A DNA stretch of 64,000 nt from an uncultured bacterium (GTDB lineage: Bacteria; Krumholzibacteriota; Krumholzibacteriia; JACNKJ01): NCBI GenBank assembly GCA_963695095.1, contig CAVOFT010000001.1:288001-352000 (forward strand), in the 5' to 3' direction. Under the pieces are notes generated by a model, which worked only from the letters and a program-made list of their open reading frames with translations, had not been told where the DNA came from and did not search any database. A program made the translations under genes and the position numbers. Position 1 is the stretch's first letter, and the number at the start of each line of letters is the position of its first letter. Shown piece by piece: positions 1 through 14,623 of the stretch.

Positions 1-1
1 C

Positions 2-1867
2 CGCGAGGACGCGATCTGGGCGAAGCGCGCTCTGAACCCGATCCAGCTCGACGGCATTCTGAACGAGGCGGACTGGGCGCTGGCCGAAACCCACGTCATC
101 CGCTGGGCGGAGAGCGCGGGGCTGCCCGGCAGCGGCTGGAAGCTGGAGAACGGCAATCCCAACGATCCCACCGAGGCCACGCTGCGCCTGCTCGTCCACG
201 GCAACCAGCTCTACCTGGCGATGGAAGTGCCGGACGCCTCGATCGGCGGCTCCCGCGACTTCAATCGTCATGACGGCTTCCTGATGTCGCTCAAGGACCA
301 TTCGGTGGCGGGCTATCCCAAGCCGATGACCGAGTACTTCTACGCCTGGTGGTACCCGACGGGCACCGATCCCCAGCCGCCGGGCAGGGAGCCCGCCTTC
401 ATCGGCCGCTGGGCGACCTGGCCGCCCGGCACGCCGCGCACGGCCGAGCAGATTGCCGCCTGGGACGCCGTGACCATCGTGGATGGCCTGTCCAACAACG
501 ACAGCGTGGCGGACACGGGCTACACGGTGGAGATGCGCTTCGACCTGACGGTGATGGGCTACGACGTCACCCGCCCCGAGGGCGACATCGTCGAGTGGAA
601 CATCTCCGTCTACGACTGCGACTGGCTGTGGCCCCTCAACGCCGCGCAGCTGAACTACTATCACGTCTGGTGGCAGTGCCCCTGGGGCTACGACGACTGG
701 TACAACGAAGTGCGCATCTATGCGCGGCCCGACGTGACGACGGCCGTGCCGACGCCTCCCCTCGAGCCCGAGTTGATGCTGCCCGTGATCGAGGCGCAGC
801 CCGTCATCGACGGCGAGCTGAGCGAGGCCGTCTGGAGCGATCCCAACGTCTACAGCTTCGACATCCGCTACGGCGACGATGCCCTGCGCGAGACCTATCC
901 CGGCGTCGGCGCCGCCCGCGCCGGCCAGTACCAGCCCATCGTCAACGGGGGCGAGGCCTTCGTCTTCGATCCCGGCGAGGCCACGGTCAAGATCTTCGTC
1001 AGCGGCGACACGATGTACTTCGGCTTCGACGTCAACGACGGCTATGTCCAGTACGTCGCGAACTTCGACCGCTGGGACGGCTTCCTGCTGAACTTCAATG
1101 ACCGCGCCGCCACCGGTCCCGACCACCAGTTGCTGGGCCGGCGCCTGTCCTTCCAGGTGGGCGCCGACGGCGCGGCGGTGCCGCGGGACTACCTGGTGGG
1201 CCTGGTGGACGCGGGGGACGCCCAGGTCGCCATCGACCTGAAGGCCGGCACGAGCGTGGACACGCTCGGCGTGGCGACCGACACCGGCTACACGGCCGAG
1301 CTGGCCCTCGATCTGAAGGCGCTGGGCTACCCCAGCGGCCTGGGCGACCGGGTGGTCTTCTTCGGCGTCAACCTGCTCGATGGCGATTCGTTCACGCCCT
1401 ACACCTTCAGCTATGGCACGCGCACCTGGTGGTTCCGCCAGTACGAGGGCAACTGCTGCGCCGCCTGGGCGGAGATCGAGCGGGACACCGGCGTGGACGA
1501 GGGCGTCACCGATTGGGCGAGCGACAACGGCGGCTACCTGCTGCTCCCCAGCTACCCGAATCCGTCCGCGCAACCCTCCGTGCGCTTCCAGATGCCCGCC
1601 TACGGCGAGGTGACCCTGGAGGTCTTCGACCTGCTGGGTCGCCGGCTGCTGCGCCGGCCGATGGGGCTGCGCGGGCTCGGCGTCCACTCCGAGTTCCTGG
1701 ACCTGACCGAGCAGAGCGCGGGCGTCTACCTGTATCGCATCACCATCGAGGACCCGAGCACCGGCCAGAAGCGCGCCGAATTGACGGGCAAGACGGTGCT
1801 TGATCAAGTGAAGGCCGCCGGGCGCGGGGGCTCACCCGCGCCCGGGGTCGCAACGCAAGGGGGATGA
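2..1867 (+). CDS. 5'-partial secreted protein with two CBM9/DOMON-like sugar-binding domains and a T9SS/FlgD-like C-terminal domain
   Basis: Frame is open from base 2 (REDAIWAKRALNPIQLDGILNEADW...). A second repeat reads PVIDGELSEAVW; the C-terminus reads YPNPS...LEVFDLLGR...AGVYLYRI. Removing one T near 1800 gives ...GKTVLIK* ending at 1811, the usual CTD ending. Confidence 0.75.
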   Translation, partial: REDAIWAKRALNPIQLDGILNEADWALAETHVIRWAESAGLPGSGWKLENGNPNDPTEATLRLLVHGNQLYLAMEVPDASIGGSRDFNRHDGFLMSLKDHSVAGYPKPMTEYFYAWWYPTGTDPQPPGREPAFIGRWATWPPGTPRTAEQIAAWDAVTIVDGLSNNDSVADTGYTVEMRFDLTVMGYDVTRPEGDIVEWNISVYDCDWLWPLNAAQLNYYHVWWQCPWGYDDWYNEVRIYARPDVTTAVPTPPLEPELMLPVIEAQPVIDGELSEAVWSDPNVYSFDIRYGDDALRETYPGVGAARAGQYQPIVNGGEAFVFDPGEATVKIFVSGDTMYFGFDVNDGYVQYVANFDRWDGFLLNFNDRAATGPDHQLLGRRLSFQVGADGAAVPRDYLVGLVDAGDAQVAIDLKAGTSVDTLGVATDTGYTAELALDLKALGYPSGLGDRVVFFGVNLLDGDSFTPYTFSYGTRTWWFRQYEGNCCAAWAEIERDTGVDEGVTDWASDNGGYLLLPSYPNPSAQPSVRFQMPAYGEVTLEVFDLLGRRLLRRPMGLRGLGVHSEFLDLTEQSAGVYLYRITIEDPSTGQKRAELTGKTVLDQVKAAGRGGSPAPGVATQGG

Positions 1868-1874
1868 GGCCATC

Positions 1875-4551
1875 GTGATCGGCAAGGAGGCTGTCCTCAG
1901 GCGCCTGACTGCGCGCCTGCTCGTTGCCGCTCTGCTCGGGAGCCTGGCGGCGTCTGCGCTGGCCGGCACGACGGGCAAGCTGGCGGGACAGGTCCGCGAC
2001 GACCAGGGCGCCCCCATCGTCGCCGCGACGGTGCTCGTCGCCGGCACCGCCCTGGGCGCCTACTCCGACGCCGGGGGGCAGTTCACGATCCTCAACGTGC
2101 CGCCCGGGCTGTACGAAGTCACGGTCAAGCGCCTCGGCTTCCAGGATCTGCGCATGAAGGCGATCTCCGTCTCCGCCGACGAGACCACGCGGCTCGACTT
2201 CGTGCTCCGGGCGGAGGACCTGGTCATGGACGAGGTGGTGGTCACGGCCGAGCGGCCCCCCGTCGAGCTGGACCTGACCAGCTCCAAGGCGACGCTCTCC
2301 AGGGAGGACATCGCCGCGCTGCCCGTGCAGGATCTGGACGACGTCGTCAGCCTGCAGGCGGGCGTGGTCGAGGGGCACTTCCGGGGCGGCCGCAAGGGCG
2401 AGGTGCAGTACCAGGTGGATGGCGTGAGCGTGAACAACGTCTTCGACAATTCCACCAGCATCAATGTCGACCGCTCGCTGCTGCAGGAGGTGCAGGTGAT
2501 CAGCGGCACCTTCGACGCGGAGTACGGCCAGGCGATGAGCGGCGTCGTCAATGCCGTGCTCAAGGAGGGCGGCCAGACGCTCGCCTGGAATGTCGAAGGC
2601 TACACCGGCGGCTTCGTCTTCCCGGGCCGCGCGGACCTGCGCAAGACCTCGGCCACGCTGCGCCCCGTCTCGACGCGCTACATCCAGGCCTCGGCCAGCG
2701 GCCCGCTGCCTTTTCCGGACACGGTGTACCTGGTCAGCGGCCGCTACGCCTACTTCGACGACTACGTCTACGCCGAGCGGCGCTTCGCCCCCACGGACAC
2801 CCTCGACTACCTGGCGGGAACGCACAGCCAGAGCGGCGACGGCAAGGAAGTGCCGCTGGGCTACAACCGGGACTGGGGCGGCCTCTTCAAGGTCAGCAAC
2901 CGCAGCCTGGACAGCGACAAGATCAGCTACCAGGCCATCGCGGACTTCAACCGGGGCCGGCGGGGCGACTTCGCCTTCCGCTACAACCCGGACGGCCTGT
3001 CCACGCAGCGGACCTTCGCCATCTCGCACGGCGGCGACTGGACGCACACCCTGGGCGCGACCAGCTACTTCGACGTCAACGTGCGCCAGAACTACTTCGA
3101 CTACCGCGACTACCGCTACGAGGACGTCAAGGACCGGGGCTATGACGCGGCGGGTCCGGCGACCGGCTACGTGAACTACGAGGACGGCGCCATCATCGAG
3201 GGCGTCAGCTTCACCCGCTACCTGCAGAAGACCAACACCTTCATGAGCAAGGGCGTCTTCGTCAGCCAGCTGACGCCGGCGAGCCAGATCAAGATCGGCG
3301 GCGAGCTGCAGATGGCGCGGGTGACCTTCGGCACGCCCGGCCACCTCTCCTTCGTCATCGATCCCGAGACGAACACGGAGGTGCTGATCCGGCACGTCGA
3401 CGACCCGCCCAGCTTCCCGGGACCGCGCACCTACCATCCGATCATCGCCGCGAGCTTCGTCCAGAATCAACTGGAATGGGCCGACCTGATCGTGCGCGCC
3501 GGGCTGCGCCTGGACTACTTCAATGCGCGCTCCTCCCTGCCCGGCGACCTCGCCAATCCCGCCAACGCCATCGCCGGCGCGCCGGCGCCGCCGCCCATGC
3601 GCACGTCGGCGAAGGTCGCGCTCTCGCCGCGCCTGGGTATCGCCTATCCGATCGAGGACAAGGCCGCCATCCACTTCGCCTACGGCCACTTCCGCCAGTT
3701 CCCGGCCATCGGCGACATGTTCAGCAACGCCGACTACTCGGTGCTGGAGAACCTGCAGGCGGGGGGCATCAGCTACGGCGTCCTGGGCAACCCGGACGTG
3801 GAGCCCGAGAAGACGATCCAGTACGAGGTGGGCTACCGTCAGGCGCTCAGCGACGATCTGGGCTTCGAGCTCACGACCTACTACAAGGACATCCGCGACC
3901 TGCTCGGCGTCGAGTTCGTCTCCACCTACAACGGCGCCGAGTACGCGCGCCTGACGAACGTCGACTTCGGCAACGTGTTCGGCACCACGGTGGCCATGGA
4001 CCATCGCCATCTGGGACCGGCGAGCGTGGGCCTCGACTACACCTGGCAGCGGGCGCTGGGCAACGCCAGCGATCCCCGGGAGACCGCGGTGCGGGCGGAG
4101 AACGGCGAGGATCCGCGGCCGCGGGTGATTCCCTTCAACTGGGATCAGCGCCATTCTTTGAACCTGACCGTTGCCGTGGGCACGCCCGGCGTGAACAGCG
4201 CGAGCATGGTGATGCGCGTCGCCAGCGGCCAGCCCTACACGCCCTATCCTGGAATCCGGCTTCGGCTACGGGCTGGACGCCAATTCCGGCCGCAAGCCGG
4301 CCGGCTTCAGCCTGGATCTGCGCAGCGAGCGCGGGGTGCAGGTCGGCCGCCTGCGTCCGCTGGTGTTCCTGCGCGTCTTCAATGTCCTGGACACCCGCTT
4401 CTTCAACGGCGACGTGTTCGCCACCACGGGCAGCCCCTACTACTCGCGCAATCCCGAGGGAGACAAGTACGCCCTCATGAATCCCTTCCGCTACTTTCCA
4501 CCGCGCCGCATCGAGCTGGGTGTGCGCTTCGAGTCCGGGGGTGGGCAATGA
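1875..4551 (+). CDS. TonB-dependent receptor with N-terminal carboxypeptidase-regulatory-like domain (one frameshift near 4245)
   Basis: Signal peptide then GTTGKLAGQV; plug FRGGRKGEVQYQVDG and ISGTFDAEYGQAMSGVVN; barrel motifs SPRLGIAYPI and GNPDVEPEKTIQYEVG. After an extra base near 4245 it continues ILESGFG...VFNVLD...PRRIELGVRF to TGA at 4551. Confidence 0.9.
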
Positions 4552-7500
4552 GGAACACGCACGCCCTGCGCCTGGCGGCCCTGCTTGCCCTCGCATTGCT
4601 CGTGCCCGCCCGCCCTGCGGGCGCGGACGTGGACACGCCGGTGCCGCCCTCCGAGCGCGGGCGCAGCGATGCCGAGCGGCGCGGCTTCCACGACGCCAAC
4701 AACCTGCGCACGGAGTTCTGGAACTTCGGCATGGTGGGCAACTACCCGCCCGATCCCGGCAACGTCGACCTGAGCACCTTCCACTCGGTCGAAGTGCCCA
4801 AGGGCAGCGGCATGAACTACAGCGACGGCATCACGCCCTTCGTGCTCGCCAAGATCCGCACCACCGGCGGCAACGACGCCTACATCATGGAGACGGGCTT
4901 CCGGGAGCGCCAGGGCATCAGTCCCTACTACAACCGCGTGATGCGCTTCGAGCCGCGCCCGGGCTACTTCGAGGCGGACCCCGCCATCAATGTCGGCCGC
5001 GCCTGCGCCGTCAGCAACGACTCGCGCACCTGGCCCGGCTTCTGGCCCGATCGCCTCGACGAGAGCGATGATCCGGGCTGGCCGGGCAGCTGGAACGGCT
5101 ACTTCGGCAAGCAGGTCGTCGCCGACCAGGAGAGCTACACGGTCCTGGACGACGACTACTACGACGCCTGGCAATTCTATCCGGACGCCCGCGACTCCAC
5201 CCGCCGCGGCCTGGGCCTGCGCATCGAGGTGCGCGGCTTCCAGTGGGCGAATCCGCAGGCGCGCAACGTCATCTTCTGGCACTACGACATCACCAACGAG
5301 AGCACGACGGACTACGACGACAACATCCTCTTCGGCGTCTACATGGACTCCGGCGTCGGCGGCTCCGCGCTCTCCTGCGACGGCATCTTCGAGTCCGACG
5401 ACGACAACGCCTTCTTCGACCGCGCCTTCAACGAGGACATCCTGAATCTCGTCTACACCTGGGATCGCTTCGGCCACGGCCGCGATCTCGCCAGCTCCTG
5501 CGGCCGCACCGGCTATCTCGGCTACGCCTACCTGGAGACGCCCGGCAACTCCACCGACGGCATCGACAATGACGAGGACGGCGTCACGGACGAGCTGCGC
5601 GAAGGGGGCCCGGGCAGCCTGCTCATCGGTCAAGCGGCGATCGACGGCTACCTGGCGGCGAACTACGACCTGGTCCGCTTCGAGGCCACCTACGGTCCCC
5701 TGGCGGACCTGCCCGCCTATCGCGAGGAGTACTGGTGGACCGGTGACGAGGACATGGACTGGACGCGGGAGAATCACGACACCGGCGCCGACGGCGTCTT
5801 CGATACCGGCGACGTCGGCGAGGAGGACGGCGTGCCGACCGCCGGGGAGCCGAACTTCGACCGCACGGACCTGAACGAGTCCGACCAGATCGGCCTGACC
5901 GGATTCAAGATCAACCGCATTCGCGCGGGCCAGGGCAATCCGAGCCAGGACGTGGACGGCATCGTCTTCTACACCGACGAGGCGAACTGGCCGCAGCGCC
6001 TCTACGAGCAGTTCACGGACCCGGATCCGGAGGCGCGCTTCGATCCGCCGCTGGCTTCCAACTACAACATCGGCTTCCTGTTCGCCTCCGGACCCTTCCG
6101 CCTGGCGGCGGGTCAGCGCGAGCGCTTCAGCCTCGCCCTGGCCTACGGCGCCGATCTGGACGAGCTGCGGCGCACCGTGAAGACCGTGCAGCAGATCTAC
6201 GACGCCAACTACCGCTTCGCCGTGCCCCCGGCGCTGCCGACCGTGACCGCCGAGGCGGGCGACGGCTACGTGCGCCTGTCCTGGGACGACGTCGCCGAGT
6301 TCAGCGCCGATCCGGTGACCGGGGTCTTCGACTTCGAGGGCTACCGTGTCTATCGCTCCACCGATCCCGAATTCCGCGATCCGCAGGTGATCTCCACGGG
6401 CACGGGCAGCGGGCCGCTGGGCAACGGCAAGCCGATCGCGCAGTTCGATCTCGTCGACGGCCGCAGCGGCTTCTCCGCGCAGGTGGTGGAGGGCGTCGCC
6501 TACTACCTGGGCACGGAGAGCGGGATCACCCACACCTGGACCGACCACAGCGTGACCAACGGCCAGCAGTACTACTATGCGGTCACGGCCTACGACTTCG
6601 GATCGGATCCCGGCGACCGCTTCGACTTCTACCCTTCCGAGAACGCGATCACGCCCAGCCGCACGCCGCGGGGTGGCCTGATCCTGCCGACCAATGTCGT
6701 CGCCGTGCGGCCCAATCTCCGCGCGGCCGGCTACGTGCCCGCGCAGGCGGAGGCCGCGGCGCAGGTCAGCGGCCGCGGCCTCGGCGAGGTGCTCGTCGAG
6801 ATCGTCAACTCGGGGCTCGTGCCCGATGAACACCTGTTCAAGATCGACTTCAGCGCGCCGTCCGCCGACAGCCTGCGGGCTACGCACTACGCGCTGCGCG
6901 ACAGCACGACGGGCCTGCTCCTCTTCGAGACGGGCAGGGATCTGGCGGGCGCCGGCGTGGGGCCCGTCGGTCAGGGCCTGCTGCCCGTGATCCGGACGCA
7001 GACGGAAGTCGCTGTCGACTCCAGCTCCGGCTTCGCCGCGGGCAGCGCCACGGATGCCCGACTGGCCGTGAGCTACTCGCCCGGCCTGCCCATCAATCGC
7101 CTGCGGCCGGGCTTCCCGGACGACATCAGCATCATCTTCGCGGACGCCGTGCAGGACACCGGCCTCGGCGGCGCGCCCTTCCTGCCGACGCCGGCCAAGT
7201 TCCGTGTCATCGCCCACAGCGCCGGCGGCGACCGGCAGCTGGATTTCCGCTTCCGGGACGCCAACGGCGACGGCACGCTCAGCCATCGCGACGACGCCAT
7301 CGACATCGTCACCTACCTGCCCACGTCGCCGGGCACGATCAACAGCACCTGGTACCTCACGCTGCCGCTGGGTACGGCCTTGCCGCAGAACCCGCCGCGC
7401 GAAGGGGACCGCTACGAGCTGAAGCTGACGCGGCCCTTCGCCGAGGACGACAGCTTCGTCTTCCTCTGTTCGGGCGAGCGGATCGACGGTGCGCGCGTGG

Positions 7501-7817
7501 GGGCGGAGTTCACGCCCTACGTCGTGCCCAACCCCTACGTGGGCTCGGCGAGCTTCGAACCGGAGCGATTCGCGGTCTCGGGGCGCGGCGAGCGCCGGCT
7601 GGAGTTCCGCGGGCTGCCGAGCCGGTGCCAGATTCTCATCTACAACGTCAAGGGCGAGCGCATCCAGACGCTTCGCCACGACGGCTCTCTCGAAGGCTAC
7701 GTCGCCTGGGACCTGCGGACGAAGGAGGGCCTCGATGTCGCACCGGGGCTCTACATCTTCCAGGTCGACGGCGGCGCCGCGGGTAGCAAGACGGGCAAAT
7801 TCGCCATCATCAAGTAG
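4548..7817 (+). CDS. Large secreted protein (~1089 aa) with Asp-rich Ca-binding-like motifs, an FN3-like region and a T9SS/FlgD-like CTD
   Basis: ATG overlaps the receptor stop (ATGA) and begins a clean signal peptide MRNTHALRLAALLALALL. Motifs: DGIDNDEDGVTDE; VRLSWD...FEGYRVYRS...YYYAVTAYD; C-terminal VVPNPY...IYNVKGE...WDLRT...APGLYIF...GKFAIIK*. Confidence 0.85.
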   Translation: MRNTHALRLAALLALALLVPARPAGADVDTPVPPSERGRSDAERRGFHDANNLRTEFWNFGMVGNYPPDPGNVDLSTFHSVEVPKGSGMNYSDGITPFVLAKIRTTGGNDAYIMETGFRERQGISPYYNRVMRFEPRPGYFEADPAINVGRACAVSNDSRTWPGFWPDRLDESDDPGWPGSWNGYFGKQVVADQESYTVLDDDYYDAWQFYPDARDSTRRGLGLRIEVRGFQWANPQARNVIFWHYDITNESTTDYDDNILFGVYMDSGVGGSALSCDGIFESDDDNAFFDRAFNEDILNLVYTWDRFGHGRDLASSCGRTGYLGYAYLETPGNSTDGIDNDEDGVTDELREGGPGSLLIGQAAIDGYLAANYDLVRFEATYGPLADLPAYREEYWWTGDEDMDWTRENHDTGADGVFDTGDVGEEDGVPTAGEPNFDRTDLNESDQIGLTGFKINRIRAGQGNPSQDVDGIVFYTDEANWPQRLYEQFTDPDPEARFDPPLASNYNIGFLFASGPFRLAAGQRERFSLALAYGADLDELRRTVKTVQQIYDANYRFAVPPALPTVTAEAGDGYVRLSWDDVAEFSADPVTGVFDFEGYRVYRSTDPEFRDPQVISTGTGSGPLGNGKPIAQFDLVDGRSGFSAQVVEGVAYYLGTESGITHTWTDHSVTNGQQYYYAVTAYDFGSDPGDRFDFYPSENAITPSRTPRGGLILPTNVVAVRPNLRAAGYVPAQAEAAAQVSGRGLGEVLVEIVNSGLVPDEHLFKIDFSAPSADSLRATHYALRDSTTGLLLFETGRDLAGAGVGPVGQGLLPVIRTQTEVAVDSSSGFAAGSATDARLAVSYSPGLPINRLRPGFPDDISIIFADAVQDTGLGGAPFLPTPAKFRVIAHSAGGDRQLDFRFRDANGDGTLSHRDDAIDIVTYLPTSPGTINSTWYLTLPLGTALPQNPPREGDRYELKLTRPFAEDDSFVFLCSGERIDGARVGAEFTPYVVPNPYVGSASFEPERFAVSGRGERRLEFRGLPSRCQILIYNVKGERIQTLRHDGSLEGYVAWDLRTKEGLDVAPGLYIFQVDGGAAGSKTGKFAIIK

Positions 7818-7832
7818 CGCGAAAGGACGACG

Positions 7833-8849
7833 ATGGCACTGCCGAGACGACTGCTGATCTGCCTCCTCTGCTTGCTGGGCTCAGCGGGGCCCGCGGCTGC
7901 CCAGACCAAGGCGGGCACCACGATCGCCCAGTTCATGGGCATCGAGCCGAGCGCCCGCCACGCGGGCTTCGGCAATGCCGGCATCGCGCTGGCGGAGGGG
8001 ATCGAGTCGGTCTACTTCAATCCCGGCGTCATCGGACTGCTGTGGGACACGGAGATCCAGTTCACCCACAGCTACTGGTACGCGGACATCGGCTACGACT
8101 ACGCGGCGATCTGCGTGCCCGCCCGCCGCTGGGGCACGCTCTTCGCCAGCGTCACCGCGCTCAACTCGGGGGACATCGCCGTCCGCACGGTCGAGTCCCC
8201 GCTGGGCACGGGCGAGAATTTCACGGTGGGCAACACGGCGATCGGCCTCGGCTTCGGCCGGCAGGTGACGAGCCGCTTCGCGGCGGGCCTGCGCTTCAAC
8301 TACATCAGCGAGCGGATCTGGCACACCTACCAGAACACGATGACGCTGGATGTCGGCACCGTCTACGCGATCCGCGAGAATGGCCTCCAGATGGCCTTCA
8401 GCCTCAGCAACGTCGGCACCGGCTCGCGCTATACCGGGCGCGACCTCGCCATCCAGTACGACAACACCGACGACATCTACGGCGACAACAGCGCCCTGCC
8501 CGGCGAGCAGCTCACGGACAGCTATCCGGTGCCGATCCTGTTCCGGGTCGGCCTGAGCTATCCCTACCAGGTCAGCGCCGATTCGCGCGTGCTCCTGCTG
8601 GCGGACGCCCTGCATCCCAACGACAACGCCGAAAGCGTGAACCTGGGCGCCGAGCTGGGCTGGCGCGGCAGCTTCGCCCTGCGGATCGGCTATCAGACCC
8701 TCTTCCAGACGGATTCGGAGCACGGCCTGACGATGGGCATGGGCATCCGGACCGAGTTCAGCGAGAGACGACTGCGCTTCGACTACGGCTGGGCCAATCA
8801 CGATCACCTCGAGGCGACGCATCGCCTGACGATTGCGGTCGGCCTCTAG
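7833..8849 (+). CDS. PorV/PorQ-family (UPF0164-like) outer-membrane beta-barrel protein
   Basis: Signal peptide; AQFMGIEPSARHAGFGNA and YFNPG motifs; amphipathic strands; terminal HRLTIAVGL. Confidence 0.8.
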   Translation: MALPRRLLICLLCLLGSAGPAAAQTKAGTTIAQFMGIEPSARHAGFGNAGIALAEGIESVYFNPGVIGLLWDTEIQFTHSYWYADIGYDYAAICVPARRWGTLFASVTALNSGDIAVRTVESPLGTGENFTVGNTAIGLGFGRQVTSRFAAGLRFNYISERIWHTYQNTMTLDVGTVYAIRENGLQMAFSLSNVGTGSRYTGRDLAIQYDNTDDIYGDNSALPGEQLTDSYPVPILFRVGLSYPYQVSADSRVLLLADALHPNDNAESVNLGAELGWRGSFALRIGYQTLFQTDSEHGLTMGMGIRTEFSERRLRFDYGWANHDHLEATHRLTIAVGL

Positions 8850-8866
8850 CGCTCAAGGAGAATGGC

Positions 8867-10479
8867 ATGCTGGCGAGACATTGGCATCGGGCCCACCCCT
8901 GGCGGCAGCTGCTCGCGACCGCGCTGCTGGGAGTGGCGCTGCTGGGCGCACTGGCGACGACGGCGCCGGCCATCCCCACCGCGGAGCTGCTGGAGTCCAT
9001 CCAGGAGGGCGCCTTCGCCTACTTCTGGAACGAGGCGAATCCCGCCAACGGCCTGATCAAGGACCGCAGCACGGGCAGCTCGCCCTGCAGCATCGCCGCC
9101 GTCGGCTTCGGGCTGTCGGCCATCTGCATCGGTGTCGACCACGGCTGGATCACGCGCGCGCAGGGCCGCGAGCGCGTGCTGACGACCCTGACGACCTTCT
9201 GGAACGGCCCCCAGGGCAGCGAGGTCTCCGGCAACATGGGCTACCGGGGCCTCTTCTACCACTTCCTGGACATGAACAGCGGCACCCGCGTCTGGAACTG
9301 CGAGCTGTCGACCATCGACACCGCGCTGCTCCTGGCGGGCGTTCTCGACGCGGCGCAGTACTTCCAGGGCGGCGATGCGGAGGAGACGGAGATCCGCGCC
9401 CTGGCGGACTGCGCTCTACCGGCGGGTGGACTGGGAGTTCATGCGCAACTCGGGCGTCGGCATCCGCATGGGCTGGAAGCCGGAGGGCGGCTTCTCCGGC
9501 TTCGGCACCTGGGTCGGCTACAACGAGGCGATGATCCTCTACATCCTCGCCCTCGGCTCGCCGACGCATCCGGTGCCCGCGAGCACCTGGTTCACCTGGA
9601 CCAGCGGCTACCAGTGGTCGACCCAGTACGGCCAGACCTACCTCATCTTCCCGCCGCTCTTCGGCCACCAGTACTCGCACTGCTGGATCGATTTCCGCAA
9701 TCGCCAGGATGTCTACATGGCCAGCAAGGGCATCGACTACTTCGAGAACTCGCGACGGGCCACCCTCGCCGCCCAGGCCTACTGCATCGGCGAACCCGCT
9801 CGGCCATGCCGGCTACAGCGAGCTCGGCTGGGGGCTCACGGCCTCGGACGACCCCTGGGGCTACAGCGCCCACGGCGCGCCGCCCGCCCAGAACGACAAC
9901 GGCACGATCACGCCCACGGCGGCGGCCAGCTCCATTCCCTTCGCGCCGGAGATCGTCATTCCGACGCTGCACCACTTCTACGACAGCTATCAGAGCCAGC
10001 TCTGGGGCCCCTACGGCTTCAAGGACGCCTTCAATCTCGATCAGAACTGGTGGGCGACCGACTACATCGGCATCGACCAGGGCCCGATCATCATCATGAT
10101 CGAGAACTACCTGAACGAGTCCATCTGGCGGCGCTTCATGCAGAACGCCCACGTGCAGGCCGGCCTGGCCGCGGCGACCTTCTCGCCGATCACCGCCGGC
10201 GCCCCTCTGGCCCCGGATGGCCTGACCCTCGCGCAGAACACGCCCAATCCCTTCCTGGACAGGAGCGTCATCCGCTTCACGCTCGCCCAGGCCGGCGAGG
10301 TGTCGCTGCGTCTCTACGATATCACGGGTCGGCGCGCGGCCACGCTCGCAGAGGGCTGGCGCGGGGCCGGCGCCCACAGCGTACCGCTGGAGGCGAGCGC
10401 GCTGCCCAGCGGCGTCTACTTCTATGTCTTGGAGAGCAACGGCGTCACCGCGATGCGCCGTTGTGTTGTCCTGAGGTAG
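8867..10479 (+). CDS. GH144 (glucoamylase-like family) endo-beta-1,2-glucanase with CTD (frameshifts near 9410 and 9790)
   Basis: RBS AAGGAG. Motifs across three frames: YFWNEANPANGLIKDR, SIAAVGFGL, GLFYHFLD, ELSTIDTALL, YNEAMILYILALGSPTH, PLFGHQYSH, GIDQGPIIIMIENY; then QNTPNPF...LPSGVYFY. Confidence 0.85.
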
Positions 10480-10591
10480 TCATGGATGACGATGCATGAA
10501 GGAGGCTAACCCCGTAACAAGGAGATCGCGTGAAGTGCAACTCGTGTCAACGCAACAGAACCTTAGTCTTGTATCCAGGAGGATCACTACC

Positions 10592-11374
10592 ATGAGACCG
10601 CTAATCAAGTCCCTGCTCGCCGCCACGCTCTTGCTGGCGCTGGTGGGTTCGATGGCCCTGGCGACGCCGGCAATCGACAGCGCCGTCTTCAATCTGCGCG
10701 TCTTCAACGACTGCCCGACGTCGATGCTGACGACGGTGAACAACTACGCGAGCCTGATCAGCATCAACGATGCGCAGCTCGATTGCGCCGGCTGGGCGAA
10801 CCTGCACAACTGGCATCTCGCCACCGGCGGCGTCGCCGGCGTGTTCATGAACGGCGATGCCTTCATCCTCAGCTTCGATCTGCGCATCACGGGCACCGCC
10901 GATGGCGAAGCGGGCGTGCTCGTCGCGCCCTGGTGGAGCCAGAATGTCGACGGCCGCTTCAACGTGCGCAGCACGGATGGCGAAATCGCCTGCTTCGGCG
11001 GCCGGCTGCCCTTCTACAGCTTCACGGGCAGCCACGGGCTGGCCTACACGAAGGGCGATCTGATCACCCTGACGGTGGCCTACTCGCCCAACGATCTGAG
11101 CGAGGCGAGCCCCGCCACGATCGAGTACATCGTGGACTACAACGGCGGCAACTACAGCTCCGGCCCGCTGCCCTTCGACGAGGGCAATCCCACGGAGCCC
11201 TACGGCAACTGGGGCATGCTCGACGACGCGCGCGTCGGCGGCTACGTGCAGGCCTTCCTGCAGAACGGCAACCCCGAGGCCGAACTGACCGCCGAATGGA
11301 CCAACATCGAGTTCCTGGACACTTCGGTGGCCACGGAGGACACGAACTGGAGCCGGGTGAAGTCCCTGTACTAG
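10592..11374 (+). CDS. Secreted hypothetical protein (beta-rich) ending in a VATEDTNWSRVKSLY tail
   Basis: RBS AGGAGG before ATG 10592; signal peptide; host-like codon usage. Confidence 0.8.
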   Translation: MRPLIKSLLAATLLLALVGSMALATPAIDSAVFNLRVFNDCPTSMLTTVNNYASLISINDAQLDCAGWANLHNWHLATGGVAGVFMNGDAFILSFDLRITGTADGEAGVLVAPWWSQNVDGRFNVRSTDGEIACFGGRLPFYSFTGSHGLAYTKGDLITLTVAYSPNDLSEASPATIEYIVDYNGGNYSSGPLPFDEGNPTEPYGNWGMLDDARVGGYVQAFLQNGNPEAELTAEWTNIEFLDTSVATEDTNWSRVKSLY

Positions 11375-11401
11375 GCGATTATCGAGCGCAAAGCGAACCT
11401 G

Positions 11402-11438
11402 GATAGCCCCGGAGCCGATGCTTCGGGGCTATCGCTTT
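11402..11438. terminator. Intrinsic, probably bidirectional, terminator hairpin
   Basis: GATAGCCCCGGAGC-cgat-GCTTCGGGGCTATC between convergent genes. Confidence 0.75.
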
Positions 11439-11444
11439 GTCGGC

Positions 11445-12269
11445 TCACGCGCGACGGAGCGCGCGGCCGGCCAGGGTGCTGAGCAGGTAGACGCCGCCGG
11501 CCAGCAGGATGATCGTCGCCCCGGCCGGCAGATCCGGTCCGTAGCTGAGGGCGAGTCCGCCCGTGCAGATCAGCGCGCCGAGCAGGACGGCGATCAGCAT
11601 CATGCGGCTGAGCGAGTTCACGTACTGGGCGGCCACGGCCGCCGGCAGCGTGAGCAGGGCGATGACGAGGATGAGCCCGACCACCTGGATCAGCAGCACC
11701 ACGGTGATGGCGATCAGGCAGAGCAGGAGCAGGTAGAAGCCCGTGACGTGCACGCCGCGCAGGCGGGCGAACTCCTCGTCGAAGGCGACGGCGACGAGCT
11801 GCTTGTAGAAGGCGGCCACGGTGAGGAGGAGCAGCAGGTCGAGGGCGATCATCAGGCGCAGGTGGCCGTCGGTCACCATGAGGATGTTGCCGAACAGGGC
11901 GCTCATGAGGTCCACGTTGTAGCCGGGCGTGCGCGCGATGAAGAGGATGCCCACCGCCATGCCCACGGACCAGAGGGCGCCGATCAGGGTGTCCTCGCGC
12001 TCGCGGGCCTTCAGGCGCACCGCGCCGATGAGCAAGGCGGCGGCGAGGGCGGCGATCAGGGCGCCGGCGAGGGGCGGGGCCCCGAAGTAGGCCGCGGCGC
12101 CCATGCCGCCGAGCACCGCGTGCGCGATGCCGCCGGCCAGGAAGGTGATGCGCTTGACGACGACGAAGGGGCCCATCACGCCGCAGCCCACGCTGGCCAG
12201 GAGCCCCGCCGCGAGGGCGTGCTGCAGGAAGCCCTGGGCGGCGAGGGCGGCGAAGAACTCCGGCATCAT
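11445..12269 (-). CDS. znuB: Zn/Mn ABC transporter permease
   Basis: Highly hydrophobic; GIAHAVLGG, LFGNIL, FDEEFARLRG, VGLILVIALLTLPAA. Confidence 0.9.
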   Translation of the reverse strand: MMPEFFAALAAQGFLQHALAAGLLASVGCGVMGPFVVVKRITFLAGGIAHAVLGGMGAAAYFGAPPLAGALIAALAAALLIGAVRLKAREREDTLIGALWSVGMAVGILFIARTPGYNVDLMSALFGNILMVTDGHLRLMIALDLLLLLTVAAFYKQLVAVAFDEEFARLRGVHVTGFYLLLLCLIAITVVLLIQVVGLILVIALLTLPAAVAAQYVNSLSRMMLIAVLLGALICTGGLALSYGPDLPAGATIILLAGGVYLLSTLAGRALRRA

Positions 12270-13081
12270 GGCCGCCCTCCGGCGCCAGCGCCGGGCGGCC
12301 GCGTATCGCCGGGATCCAGGTGCGTGTGGTGATGGATGATCTGCGCCGGGCCGCCGTACATCTCGGCGATGATCTCCCCGCTCAGCGCGCTGGTCTCATG
12401 GCAGACGAGCCGCCGGTTGAGGCAGGCCACGCGGCCCACGTAGCCCGAGATGAAGCCGACGTCGTGGGAGACCACGACGATGGTCAGCTCGCGGTTCAGG
12501 TCGCGCAGCAGATCGAAGAGACTGGACTCCACCCGGGCGTCCACGTTGGCCGTGGGCTCGTCGAGCAGGAGCACGCGCGGCGCGCAGGCCAGGGCCCGGG
12601 CGATGAGCACGCGCTGGAGCTGGCCGCCGGAGAGCGTGGCCAGCGGGCGCTCGGCGAGATCGGCCATCGACACGGCGGCGAGGGCGCGGAGAGCGACGGC
12701 GTGGTCCTCGCGGCGCCAGCCGAAGAGCCGGCGCGTCTGGCCGAGGCGGCCTTGCATCACCGCACGCTGTACCGAGATGGGAAAGTCGCTGGCGAAGCTG
12801 CGGAACTGGGGCACGTAGCCGAGCAGGGCGCGGGCCTCGCGCGGCCGGCGCCCGAAGACGCGCACGCTGCCGCGCTCGGGTTCGAGCAGGCCGAGCACGA
12901 GCTTGAGCAGGGTGCTCTTGCCGCCGCCGTTGGGCCCCACCAGGCCCAGGAACTCACCCGCGGCCACCTCGAGGTTCACGTCCTCCAGCACGGCGGGTCG
13001 CCGCGCGTCGCCGCCGTAGCGGAACTGCACCTGGCGCAGCGCGATGGCAGGCGTCGCGGCGGCGGCCATGGCCCCGCTCAC
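12266..13081 (-). CDS. znuC: Zn/Mn ABC transporter ATP-binding protein
   Basis: Walker [15 protein letters not shown] signature; LLLDEPT; VSHD. Confidence 0.92.
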
Positions 13082-13971
13082 GGCCGGCTCCGGAGCGCCT
13101 CGGCGATGAGCCGCGCCGAGCGGCGCAGGTTCTCCACGTAGTCCGGCGCCAGGGGGTCGAGCGCGATCACGCGCCCGCCCACCGCCTCGGCCACCGCCTG
13201 GGCGCTGGCCGTGGCCGCCTGCTGCTGCACGAAGACCACGCGAATTCCCTCCGCCTTGGCCCGTGCGATGATGCCGGCCAGGGAGCGAGCGCCGGGCTCC
13301 TTGCCCTCGTGCTCGATGGCCACCTGCTCGAGCCCGTAGGCGGCGGCGAAGTAGCCCCAGGAGGGGTGAAAGACCAGGAAGCGCCGGCCCTCGAGGCCCG
13401 CGAGGAGGCCTCTGATCTCCGCATCGAGCGCGGCCAGCTCGGCGGCGAAGCGCGCGGCGCCGGCCTGGTAGTCGGCGGCGTGGGGGGGATCCGCCGCCGC
13501 CAGCGCCGCCGCCAGGGGCGGCAGCAGGCGGGCGACGAGCAGGGGATCCGTCCAGACGTGCGGATCGAGCTCGCCAGTGGGCTCCGGAGCGCGGGGCTCC
13601 GCGTGCGCATGGCCGATCAGGGGCAGCGGGGCGATGCCGGCCGCGGCCAGCAAGTCCAGCACCGGCAGACCCGGATGCGCGGCCTCGAGACGCGGCAACC
13701 AGGCTCGCTCGAAGGGCACGCCGATGGGCAGGATGAGGTCCGCCTCGGCCAGGGCCGCCATTTGCCGCGGGGTGGGCTCGTAGGTGTGGATGTTGCGGCC
13801 CGGGCCGACGAGCACCGCCACCGTCACGAGCTCGCCGCCCACCGCCTCGACGATGGCCCGCTGAGGCAGCAGGCTCACGACCACGCGCAGGGGAGCTGCC
13901 GCCACCCGCTCCGCGGGGAGCCCGAGCGCCAGGACGACCAGCGCGCAGCCGGCGGCGCGGCGCGGGCTCAT
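13078..13971 (-). CDS. znuA: Zn/Mn ABC transporter substrate-binding protein
   Basis: HTYEPTP, DPHVWTDP, FHPSWGYFA. ATG at 13971 overlaps the upstream stop. Confidence 0.9.
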   Translation of the reverse strand: MSPRRAAGCALVVLALGLPAERVAAAPLRVVVSLLPQRAIVEAVGGELVTVAVLVGPGRNIHTYEPTPRQMAALAEADLILPIGVPFERAWLPRLEAAHPGLPVLDLLAAAGIAPLPLIGHAHAEPRAPEPTGELDPHVWTDPLLVARLLPPLAAALAAADPPHAADYQAGAARFAAELAALDAEIRGLLAGLEGRRFLVFHPSWGYFAAAYGLEQVAIEHEGKEPGARSLAGIIARAKAEGIRVVFVQQQAATASAQAVAEAVGGRVIALDPLAPDYVENLRRSARLIAEALRSRP

Positions 13972-14348
13972 CGTGCCCCTCCCTGACAGCCTGCGCACAG
14001 GCCCATCAAGTAGAACTCGTGCTCCTCGACGAGAAACCCCGCCGGCGCCAGGCGCTCGAAATCCCCCGGACAGGCGGCCAGCTCGTAGACCGCCGCGCAG
14101 CGCCGGCAGCGGAAGTGGTGGTGATGCGCCTTGCCGGCCAGCTCGTAGCGGCTGGGCTCGCCGGGCAGGGCGACTTCCCGCAGGGCCCCGTCGGCCAGCA
14201 GACCGGCCAGGTGCCGGTAGACCGTGGCGATGCCCAGGGCCGGCAGCGCTTGCCCGGCCTCGCTGAGGATCTCGCGCGGGGACAGGGGCCGATCGGCCTG
14301 CTCGAGCGCGGCCAGGACGGCATCTCGCTGGCGGGTACGGCGCTGCAG
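13968..14348 (-). CDS. zur: Fur-family transcriptional repressor (Zur-like)
   Basis: TRQRDAVL, LGIATVYRHL, HHHHFRCRRC and C-terminal CAGC; heads the znuACB operon. Start uncertain; GGAGG precedes a CTG codon at 14348. Confidence 0.85.
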   Translation of the reverse strand: MQRRTRQRDAVLAALEQADRPLSPREILSEAGQALPALGIATVYRHLAGLLADGALREVALPGEPSRYELAGKAHHHHFRCRRCAAVYELAACPGDFERLAPAGFLVEEHEFYLMGLCAGCQGGAR

Positions 14349-14377
14349 GGTCCACCTCCAGGGTCTGGAGCGTCCTA

Positions 14378-14405
14378 TTGATAGCGAGATCTCATTAGAA
14401 ATCAA
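14378..14405. promoter_or_regulatory. Candidate Fur/Zur operator
   Basis: AT-rich imperfect palindrome TTGATAGCGAGATCTCATTAGAAATCAA, centred on GAGATCTC, just upstream of zur. Confidence 0.5.
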
Positions 14406-14623
14406 GGGCGTGGCCAAAGAAAATGCCCGGGCCAGGGGGCTCGGGCATCGTCAGGGCCGCCCGGAGAAGTAGTGGTGGCGTTCCGGGGGCGTGTCGACGC
14501 CGCGAGTCTGGCCAAGGGAGACAAGATATGCAAGAAATAAACAGCGTTAACTGAATTTCAGGCCCGCCCTGCGGCTTCGGTCCCCCAGGCTCCATCGCCA
14601 GGCAGATCGTCTCAGGCCGTCCA

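Follow-up and report, generated by a model that had tools for sequence, protein, structure and literature searches.

What partners a TonB-dependent transporter in a glycan uptake locus that has no SusD? The question is raised by the beginning of a 64,000-nucleotide stretch (the window) of contig CAVOFT010000001.1 (GCA_963695095.1), from an uncultured bacterium of the Krumholzibacteriota, where the gene for such a transporter (the receptor) is followed by genes encoding a large secreted protein and an outer-membrane barrel of the PorV/PorQ family. We find that this trio of receptor, large protein and barrel is a genuine uptake core, widespread and conserved, that couples a transporter of the polysaccharide utilisation locus (PUL) type to anchoring of the T9SS (type IX secretion system) type, and that it falls outside SusC/SusD and both curated types of T9SS C-terminal domain (CTD). 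On balance, we favour the view that the large protein, tethered by the barrel, caps the transporter and selects its substrate, most likely working like SusC/SusD. The trio, with the domains of the large protein, is laid out as follows:

1875 to 4551, plus strand: TonB-dependent transporter with N-terminal CarboxypepD_reg, plug and barrel (PF13620, PF07715, PF00593)
4548 to 7817, plus strand: 1089-residue secreted large protein without a Pfam family; signal peptide without lipobox
4656 to 6218, plus strand: its N-terminal beta-supersandwich (residues 37-557), which has a closing helix and an acidic insert rich in Asp and Gly (331-450)
6219 to 6713, plus strand: its FN3-like domain (residues 558-722), which holds most of the invariant residues of the family
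6720 to 7502, plus strand: its variable beta-rich stalk, missing from the shortest paralogues (610-740 residues)
7515 to 7814, plus strand: its CTD, a distinct subtype linked to receptor-barrel loci
7833 to 8849, plus strand: 14-strand outer-membrane barrel of the PorV/PorQ family, a locus-specific paralogue (NF033709, 164 bits)

Of 318 genome loci with a gene related to that of the large protein, the best 80 were taken as orthologous. The gene order receptor, large protein, barrel is kept in 73 of them, and all seven misses lie at contig ends; counted singly, a receptor is present upstream in 75 and a barrel downstream in 78. The trio also recurs in paralogous loci, and the synteny that the original prediction had proposed as its test is thus borne out. 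The large-protein family comprises 6,720 representatives at an E value of 0.001 or below (900 at 1e-30), and the best homologues with a named source come from Candidatus Krumholzibacteriota, Latescibacteria and Eisenbacteria. A sample drawn blind to neighbours (matches of the large-protein profile in three genomes, 40 regions, leaving out three known loci and eight lower-scoring places in genome G122) has both receptor and barrel within 9 kb for 39 of 44 large-protein genes. The other five comprise two genes at contig ends that do have a barrel, the last gene of a tandem triplet, and two genuine orphans. For a second subfamily, found with a paralogous N-domain as the query, the receptor is present in 40 of 40 loci and the barrel in 39 (40 of 41 places covered), and the trio occurs in all 19 top-scoring loci from SusD-positive genomes. 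No fusion of the large protein to the barrel was seen among 270 proteins examined; longer forms were not searched.

The neighbours of the trio differ by locus (flanking-gene families were scanned on 163 selected open reading frames, ORFs). They include GH13/CBM20; GH28/PL10/pectinesterase; alginate lyase/GH88/GH97; GH43/GH2; GH10/GH67; GH130; and peptidases and peptide transporters. Judged by these families, the substrates of the paralogous loci would include starch, pectin, alginate or glycosaminoglycan, xylan, peptides and those of GH130. Pairwise similarities of the three trio proteins correlate (Spearman 0.82-0.90, 142 complete trios), and in 33-35 of 40 paralogue-rich loci (3.1 expected) the proteins have matching nearest neighbours. 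The trio is inherited as a unit. In one locus (L083:5354-16068; source genome C1:2391353-2402067) the trio is followed by a GWxTD-type gene, exbB, two exbD genes and tonB, and GWxTD genes also lie 3' of trios in L099 and L120. Genes for parvulin-type peptidyl-prolyl isomerases (PPIases), possibly dedicated folding aids, occur within a few genes of trios in L112, L114, L115 and L169. Family members or CTD carriers without a nearby receptor or barrel are found at L091:7412-11050, L098:8487-11003 and, in the source genome, C1:3110475-3112934.

How would the large protein be held at the surface? Its barrel passes the PorV/PorQ family model NF033709 (164 bits, cut-off 90) and falls below the PorV/PorQ equivalog cut-offs (NF033710, 51 vs 250 bits; NF033711, 85 vs 220 bits); no PorP/SprF model is among the matches listed. 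The modelled barrel has 14 strands and is closest to the PorV of F. johnsoniae (8gl6_F, TM 0.74), and a profile search against solved structures matched 6h3i_F only. The source genome encodes canonical T9SS parts, namely the SprA translocon, the PorU sortase and PorV; it has 11 PorV-family matches at 10 places, and its porU gene is directly followed by another PorV-family paralogue. Because this separate porU-porV pair exists, the locus barrel is an extra paralogue, and the earlier claim of a locus-specific PorV paralogue holds. Eight of the ten PorV-family genes directly follow a gene for a large protein (807 to 2863 residues) with a CTD-like end. One PorV-family barrel in the same genome appears to carry an OmpA-like tail as a fusion (C1:743511-744929).

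PorZ-PorQ and PorU-PorV are established cases of a CTD that stays uncut on its cognate barrel (PMC10202324; sources cited by PMC number, here and below, are drawn on for the portions available), and type B cargo is retained on PorP/SprF (PMC9143113, PMC12618676). The large protein would very likely be exported via SprA by its CTD and stay uncut on the co-encoded barrel, much as PorQ holds PorZ and PorP/SprF holds type B cargo. The original prediction gave T9SS-like CTDs to three proteins of the locus. Two of these, a CBM9-like protein and the glycanase GH144, score 27.6 and 32.7 bits on the type A model TIGR04183, above its cut-off of 23; the large protein's CTD forms a separate subtype that no curated model covers. 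It matches the C-termini of PorU and PorZ weakly (E 0.012 and 0.042). Identification of the large protein as PorU or PorZ was rejected, as the CTD alone matches, and weakly. The genome has 88 CTD-like ends; five exceed 40 bits on a profile of this CTD, and three of those belong to receptor-barrel loci.

At eight of ten PorV-family places in this genome the barrel gene comes straight after that of a large CTD protein; this general pattern would also suit a large protein that, anchored by its barrel, acts as a surface binding protein or adhesin, similar to SusE/SusF-type proteins or type B adhesins, concentrating substrate off the transporter. Orphan copies, a locus with three copies and the weak support for a complex (below) also fit such a role. 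It is made unlikely by the near one-to-one coupling to a receptor, often with overlapping stop and start codons, and by a single fold family that serves unrelated substrates, where accessory binding proteins would usually differ.

The large protein itself belongs to no Pfam or NCBIfam family, Atlas gave no name either, and no full-length relative was found among solved structures. Its AlphaFold2 model (mean pLDDT 88, pTM 0.82) is almost all beta. Foldseek with the whole model returned generic FN3/Ig matches only. In a wider fold search, which bears little on the stalk and CTD, the beta-supersandwich has its best fold match in 9ju0 (Z 20.1, rmsd 3.2, 264 aligned); it also matches the N-domains of GH15, GH94 and GH65 together with mutarotases (Z 13-19; aldose 1-epimerases by themselves, Z 12-14) and GH174 (Z 14.9). 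The model has no tetratricopeptide repeat (TPR) fold, the sequence has no match to the SusD families PF07980 and PF14322, and a lipobox-like motif is found in four of 216 full-length homologues. Thus the claim that no SusD lipoprotein follows the receptor stands, with no SusD family match, no lipobox and a beta model, and the large protein does not have the SusD fold and is not recognisable as a glycosidase. The shortest paralogues retain the sandwich, its helix, the FN3 domain and the CTD.

The large protein could instead be a surface enzyme of a new family that acts on the substrate before import, given that its best fold matches are carbohydrate-active enzyme domains, including single-sandwich catalysts (the aldose 1-epimerases and GH174), and that many Asp and Glu residues are invariant. 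We consider this improbable. The hits with Z of 15-20 fall on N-domains of GH15, GH94 and GH65 that are not catalytic, and they cover the sandwich, and the catalytic (alpha/alpha)6 barrel of these enzymes is missing in the model, which has short scattered helices only. Many of the invariant acids lie in the insert missing from short paralogues, homologues occur in peptide as well as glycan loci, and the locus already has two GH144 genes.

For the cap we favour, the model makes the beta-supersandwich the candidate substrate- and receptor-facing domain. Several of its segments are highly conserved in beta-1,2-glucan orthologues and variable in paralogues (for example residues 61-90, 0.86 vs 0.24; residues 451-510, about 0.7 vs 0.14), and as sequence patterns these stretches would fit substrate- or receptor-specific loops. 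Contact with the receptor was predicted on a shorter paralogous pair from locus L148, with the transporter barrel without its plug (595 residues), the N-domain (353 residues) and 41-row alignments. The median score is 0.58, against 0.34 for the best of three controls; runs agree in at least 81% of contacts, and the partner has a pLDDT of at least 86. The score mark was met by 116 of 157 solved pairs and two of 215 mismatched pairs. The prediction thus lends weak support to a contact of the large protein with the receptor, because scores of 0.60 or below hold just 18 solved pairs together with both mismatches. Recall of a similar complex is unlikely, because no full-length relative of the large protein was found among solved structures; the score is model confidence only. 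Of the complex check proposed with the original prediction, then, the contact was returned, if weakly and for a paralogous pair without the plug. The stalk and FN3 domain would probably hold the beta-supersandwich against the transporter on its outer side.

Alternatively, the large protein and barrel could be structural or assembly partners of the transporter (a canopy, gate or folding aid, in the way of BamG/BamH on BamA) that bind no substrate. [quoted passage not shown] The trio is moreover substrate-independent, with members in peptide loci and in the locus with GWxTD, ExbBD and TonB genes, and PPIase genes lie beside several trios. We judge this reading unlikely as well, since the N-domain segments are conserved in orthologues and variable in paralogues as specificity loops would be, although such segments could also match a cognate receptor.

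Several further observations weigh against the cap. Two family members in the neighbour-blind sample have no receptor or barrel adjoining, two of the five high-scoring CTDs in the source genome have no known receptor or barrel neighbours (one neighbourhood was inspected), and locus L113 (4638-19999) has one receptor and one barrel, then three tandem copies of the large protein. The correlated similarities of the trio proteins speak for joint inheritance and not for contact, because gene linkage alone suffices to produce them, and the weak complex score stems from another locus, with the plug left out. The fold of the beta-supersandwich is catalytic in mutarotases and GH174. The large-protein CTD passes no curated CTD model (neither TIGR04183 nor, at E 0.1, PF13585, CHU_C). 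Lastly, searches with TIGR03517 and TIGR03523 found no GldM or GldN in the source genome or in genomes G121 and G122 and found both in two of two control genomes; distant homologues may escape these models, and GldK and GldL were not searched. In a genome with SprA, PorU, ten PorV-family places and dozens of CTD proteins, secretion may run without the known motor.

Is the trio a stand-in for SusD, as originally predicted? The receptor scores 71 bits on the SusC model TIGR04056 (cut-off 368.25; 790 in-frame residues), no SusD is encoded in the locus, and the source genome, 93.5% complete, has no PF07980 match. Among 121 genomes of the phylum of the window, PF07980 is matched in one and the large-protein profile in 120 (full length in 33, partial in three, the rest via the CTD). 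Among FCB (Fibrobacterota-Chlorobiota-Bacteroidota) phyla, only Chlorobiota are described as lacking SusCD (PMC12611786). In 151 Bacteroidota genomes, SusD occurs in 80, the large-protein family in 66 and both in 39, counts that rest on one SusD model and on kin genomes that are not independent; none of the 25 Bacteroidota genomes with at least eight SusD matches had the large-protein family. One xylan-type locus (L169-L170) contains both the trio and a SusC-like/SusD pair. The shared genomes and this locus count against a simple substitute, and they rule out strict mutual exclusion of trio and SusD. Because the two systems share genomes and once a single locus, the trio is better regarded as a parallel system than as a stopgap.

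The substrate of this particular locus is clearer. The remaining features are:

1 to 1811, plus strand: CBM9-like secreted protein with a type A-like CTD (PF06452, 24.5 bits, cut-off 23.4; TIGR04183, 27.6 bits)
8867 to 10479, plus strand: GH144 endo-beta-1,2-glucanase with a type A-like CTD (PF10091)
10592 to 11374, plus strand: 260-residue secreted protein with a short C-terminal tag; no family match
about 11402-11435, no strand: hairpin (-35.5 kcal/mol for 11385-11450, z -4.35)

On the same contig the locus reaches at least 15 kb upstream of the window, where it has a LacI gene; genes for GH94, GH1 and GDSL, which are divergent; and another GH144, accompanied by genes of the sugar ABC type. 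Carbohydrate-active enzymes for a single substrate are thus co-located with a regulator (two GH144, GH94, GH1, an ABC transporter and LacI). GH144 or GH94 is present in 74 of the 80 orthologous loci. An intact GH144 orthologue (locus L027) matches XcSGL (8xul, E 4e-119); the clan-defining residues E239, F286 and Y367 of XcSGL (PMC12102758) are aligned in it, and the same motifs are present in the GH144 pieces of the window. Use of beta-1,2-glucan is well supported because enzyme families and gene context agree on it, and on these grounds the locus very probably harvests this polymer. The predicted substrate, beta-1,2-glucan, is thus the most likely one for this locus, and does not extend to the trio, which is specific neither to beta-1,2-glucan nor even to glycans.

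Taken together, surface GH144 would cut the polymer and the TonB-dependent transporter would import the oligosaccharides, acting with two dedicated partners, the large protein and the barrel. Variable loops of the beta-supersandwich could select the substrate, a role like that of the SusD lid without a shared fold or anchor. Judged by families and gene order, the ABC transporter, the GH94 phosphorylase and GH1 would complete breakdown under LacI control.

The six genes lie on the plus strand, with a hairpin after the last, at the positions originally given for them. The stop codon of the receptor overlaps the start of the large protein as ATGA (4548-4551), and the next gaps are 15 nt (large protein to barrel) and 17 nt (barrel to GH144), in agreement with the predicted tight run with gaps under 20 nt. 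The CBM9-like gene, present in 67 of the 80 orthologous loci, starts about 80 nt ahead of the window and is ATGA-coupled to the LacI gene upstream. The gene for the 260-residue protein is present in 43 of the 80; a pattern search found its short Trp-containing tag, which is not a T9SS CTD, in 26 predicted proteins of the genome. The hairpin is missing from the terminator-scan list because it has no T-run. Converging on the locus from the minus strand and sharing the hairpin is an operon for a metal (zinc-type) ABC transporter with a Fur-family regulator (11445-14417, named by sequence reading). No sigma-70-type promoter match was found within 1-14000.

Several reading frames in this copy are broken. 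In the receptor, one extra base near 4246 throws the last 100 codons out of frame; the coding-frame signal shifts near 4245, and the true receptor end lies in a different frame. The resulting 1980-residue ORF (1875-7817), an apparent receptor/large-protein fusion, was rejected as a frameshift artefact, and no orthologous locus has both proteins in one ORF. GH144 is broken by extra bases near 9409 and 9786, and a likely fourth single-base shift near 1800, judged from the ends of three orthologues, conceals the true stop of the CBM9-like gene. The receptor is a single ORF in 74 of 74 related loci and GH144 in 60 of 65, the other five being best matches of the pieces on different ORFs. Contigs of relatives are one base shorter at 4246, 9409 and 9786 (one contig per run, depth 4-6; two runs for 4246 and 9409, one for 9786). 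The upstream GH144 and ABC genes (L001:4855-9519) are likewise split into overlapping frames, which suggests frequent single-base errors in the assembly.

Real decay of this copy, with genuine frameshifts in receptor and GH144, would be compatible with the comparison contigs, as these are relatives of a different strain at about 93-95% identity. It is very unlikely, since every break is a single extra base, the upstream genes show similar shifts, and the coding-frame signal resumes past each break, which is typical of long-read consensus errors; it would also touch only this copy and not the module. The sequence pattern indicates that the single-base frameshifts in the window are probably assembly errors.

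No description of the trio module was found in a literature search of mostly openly accessible papers, supplements not covered; the available portions of PMC13543919 and PMC5317091 do not mention it, and those of PMC10994853 hold nothing relevant to it. PULs are found via SusC/SusD pairs (PMC13543919), and detection of this kind overlooks trio loci in Krumholzibacteriota, Eisenbacteria, Calditrichota, Ignavibacteria and lineages akin to them. Stopping somewhat short of leaning towards it, we consider it possible that the FCB group has, in the trio, a second general machine for outer-membrane uptake, with a secreted lid on TonB-dependent transporters, held by its uncut CTD on a private PorV-type barrel and exported by SprA without the known GldLM/GldKN motor, the whole serving glycans and peptides and numbering as many as about twenty per genome. 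If true, the trio would be a marker for predicting the diet of mostly uncultured carbon degraders, many unexplained PorV paralogues would gain a role, and type IX secretion would be tied directly to nutrient import. Similar clusters are present in named cultured relatives (PMC8861115, PMC6987092), which makes the reading testable.

One of these is in Ignavibacterium album, for which a TonB-dependent transporter has been proposed to import beta-1,2-glucan (PMC8861115). Its cluster resembles the present locus in gene content, with GH144, GH94, an ABC transporter and a TonB-dependent transporter for this polymer; unlike here, no transporter partner is named in the available text. The other is the xylan locus of Rhodothermus marinus (PMC6987092, Table 1), where a TonB-dependent receptor, a hypothetical Por-CTD protein and two hypotheticals stand ahead of SusC/SusD. 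The order in L169-L170 is much alike, with the trio in those places, an equivalence taken from gene order only. In contrast to our reading, these genes are termed hypothetical and no module is proposed in the portion available. Three genes of a starch operon in Melioribacter, termed SusC, SusD and SusE (PMC3534657), may be a further instance of the trio.

The trio resembles T9SS cargo with a cognate barrel (PorZ-PorQ, PorU-PorV, type B with PorP/SprF) in that a CTD gene is directly followed by the gene for a PorV-like barrel, with paralogous pairs within one genome. The known pairs act in attachment, gliding or adhesion, with no tie to a nutrient transporter, whereas the barrel of the trio is of the PorV/PorQ family, its CTD is of neither curated type, and GldM and GldN were not found in three genomes that carry it. 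As in the BamG-BamH canopy (PMC12611786), a FadL/PorV-type 14-strand barrel would prop an extracellular protein over a neighbouring barrel; BamG-BamH, however, serves protein assembly, BamH is a lipoprotein, and the barrel of the trio is nearer to PorV than to BamG.

Finally, the trio shares with SusC/SusD a TonB-dependent transporter with an N-terminal CarboxypepD_reg domain that is directly followed by a large surface partner, its reuse beside many enzyme sets, and a regulator upstream. It differs in a receptor that falls far under the cut-off of the SusC model, and in a partner that is a beta-sandwich CTD protein without a lipobox, whereas SusD is a helical TPR lipoprotein. To this two-part plan the trio adds a third core gene, the 14-strand barrel.

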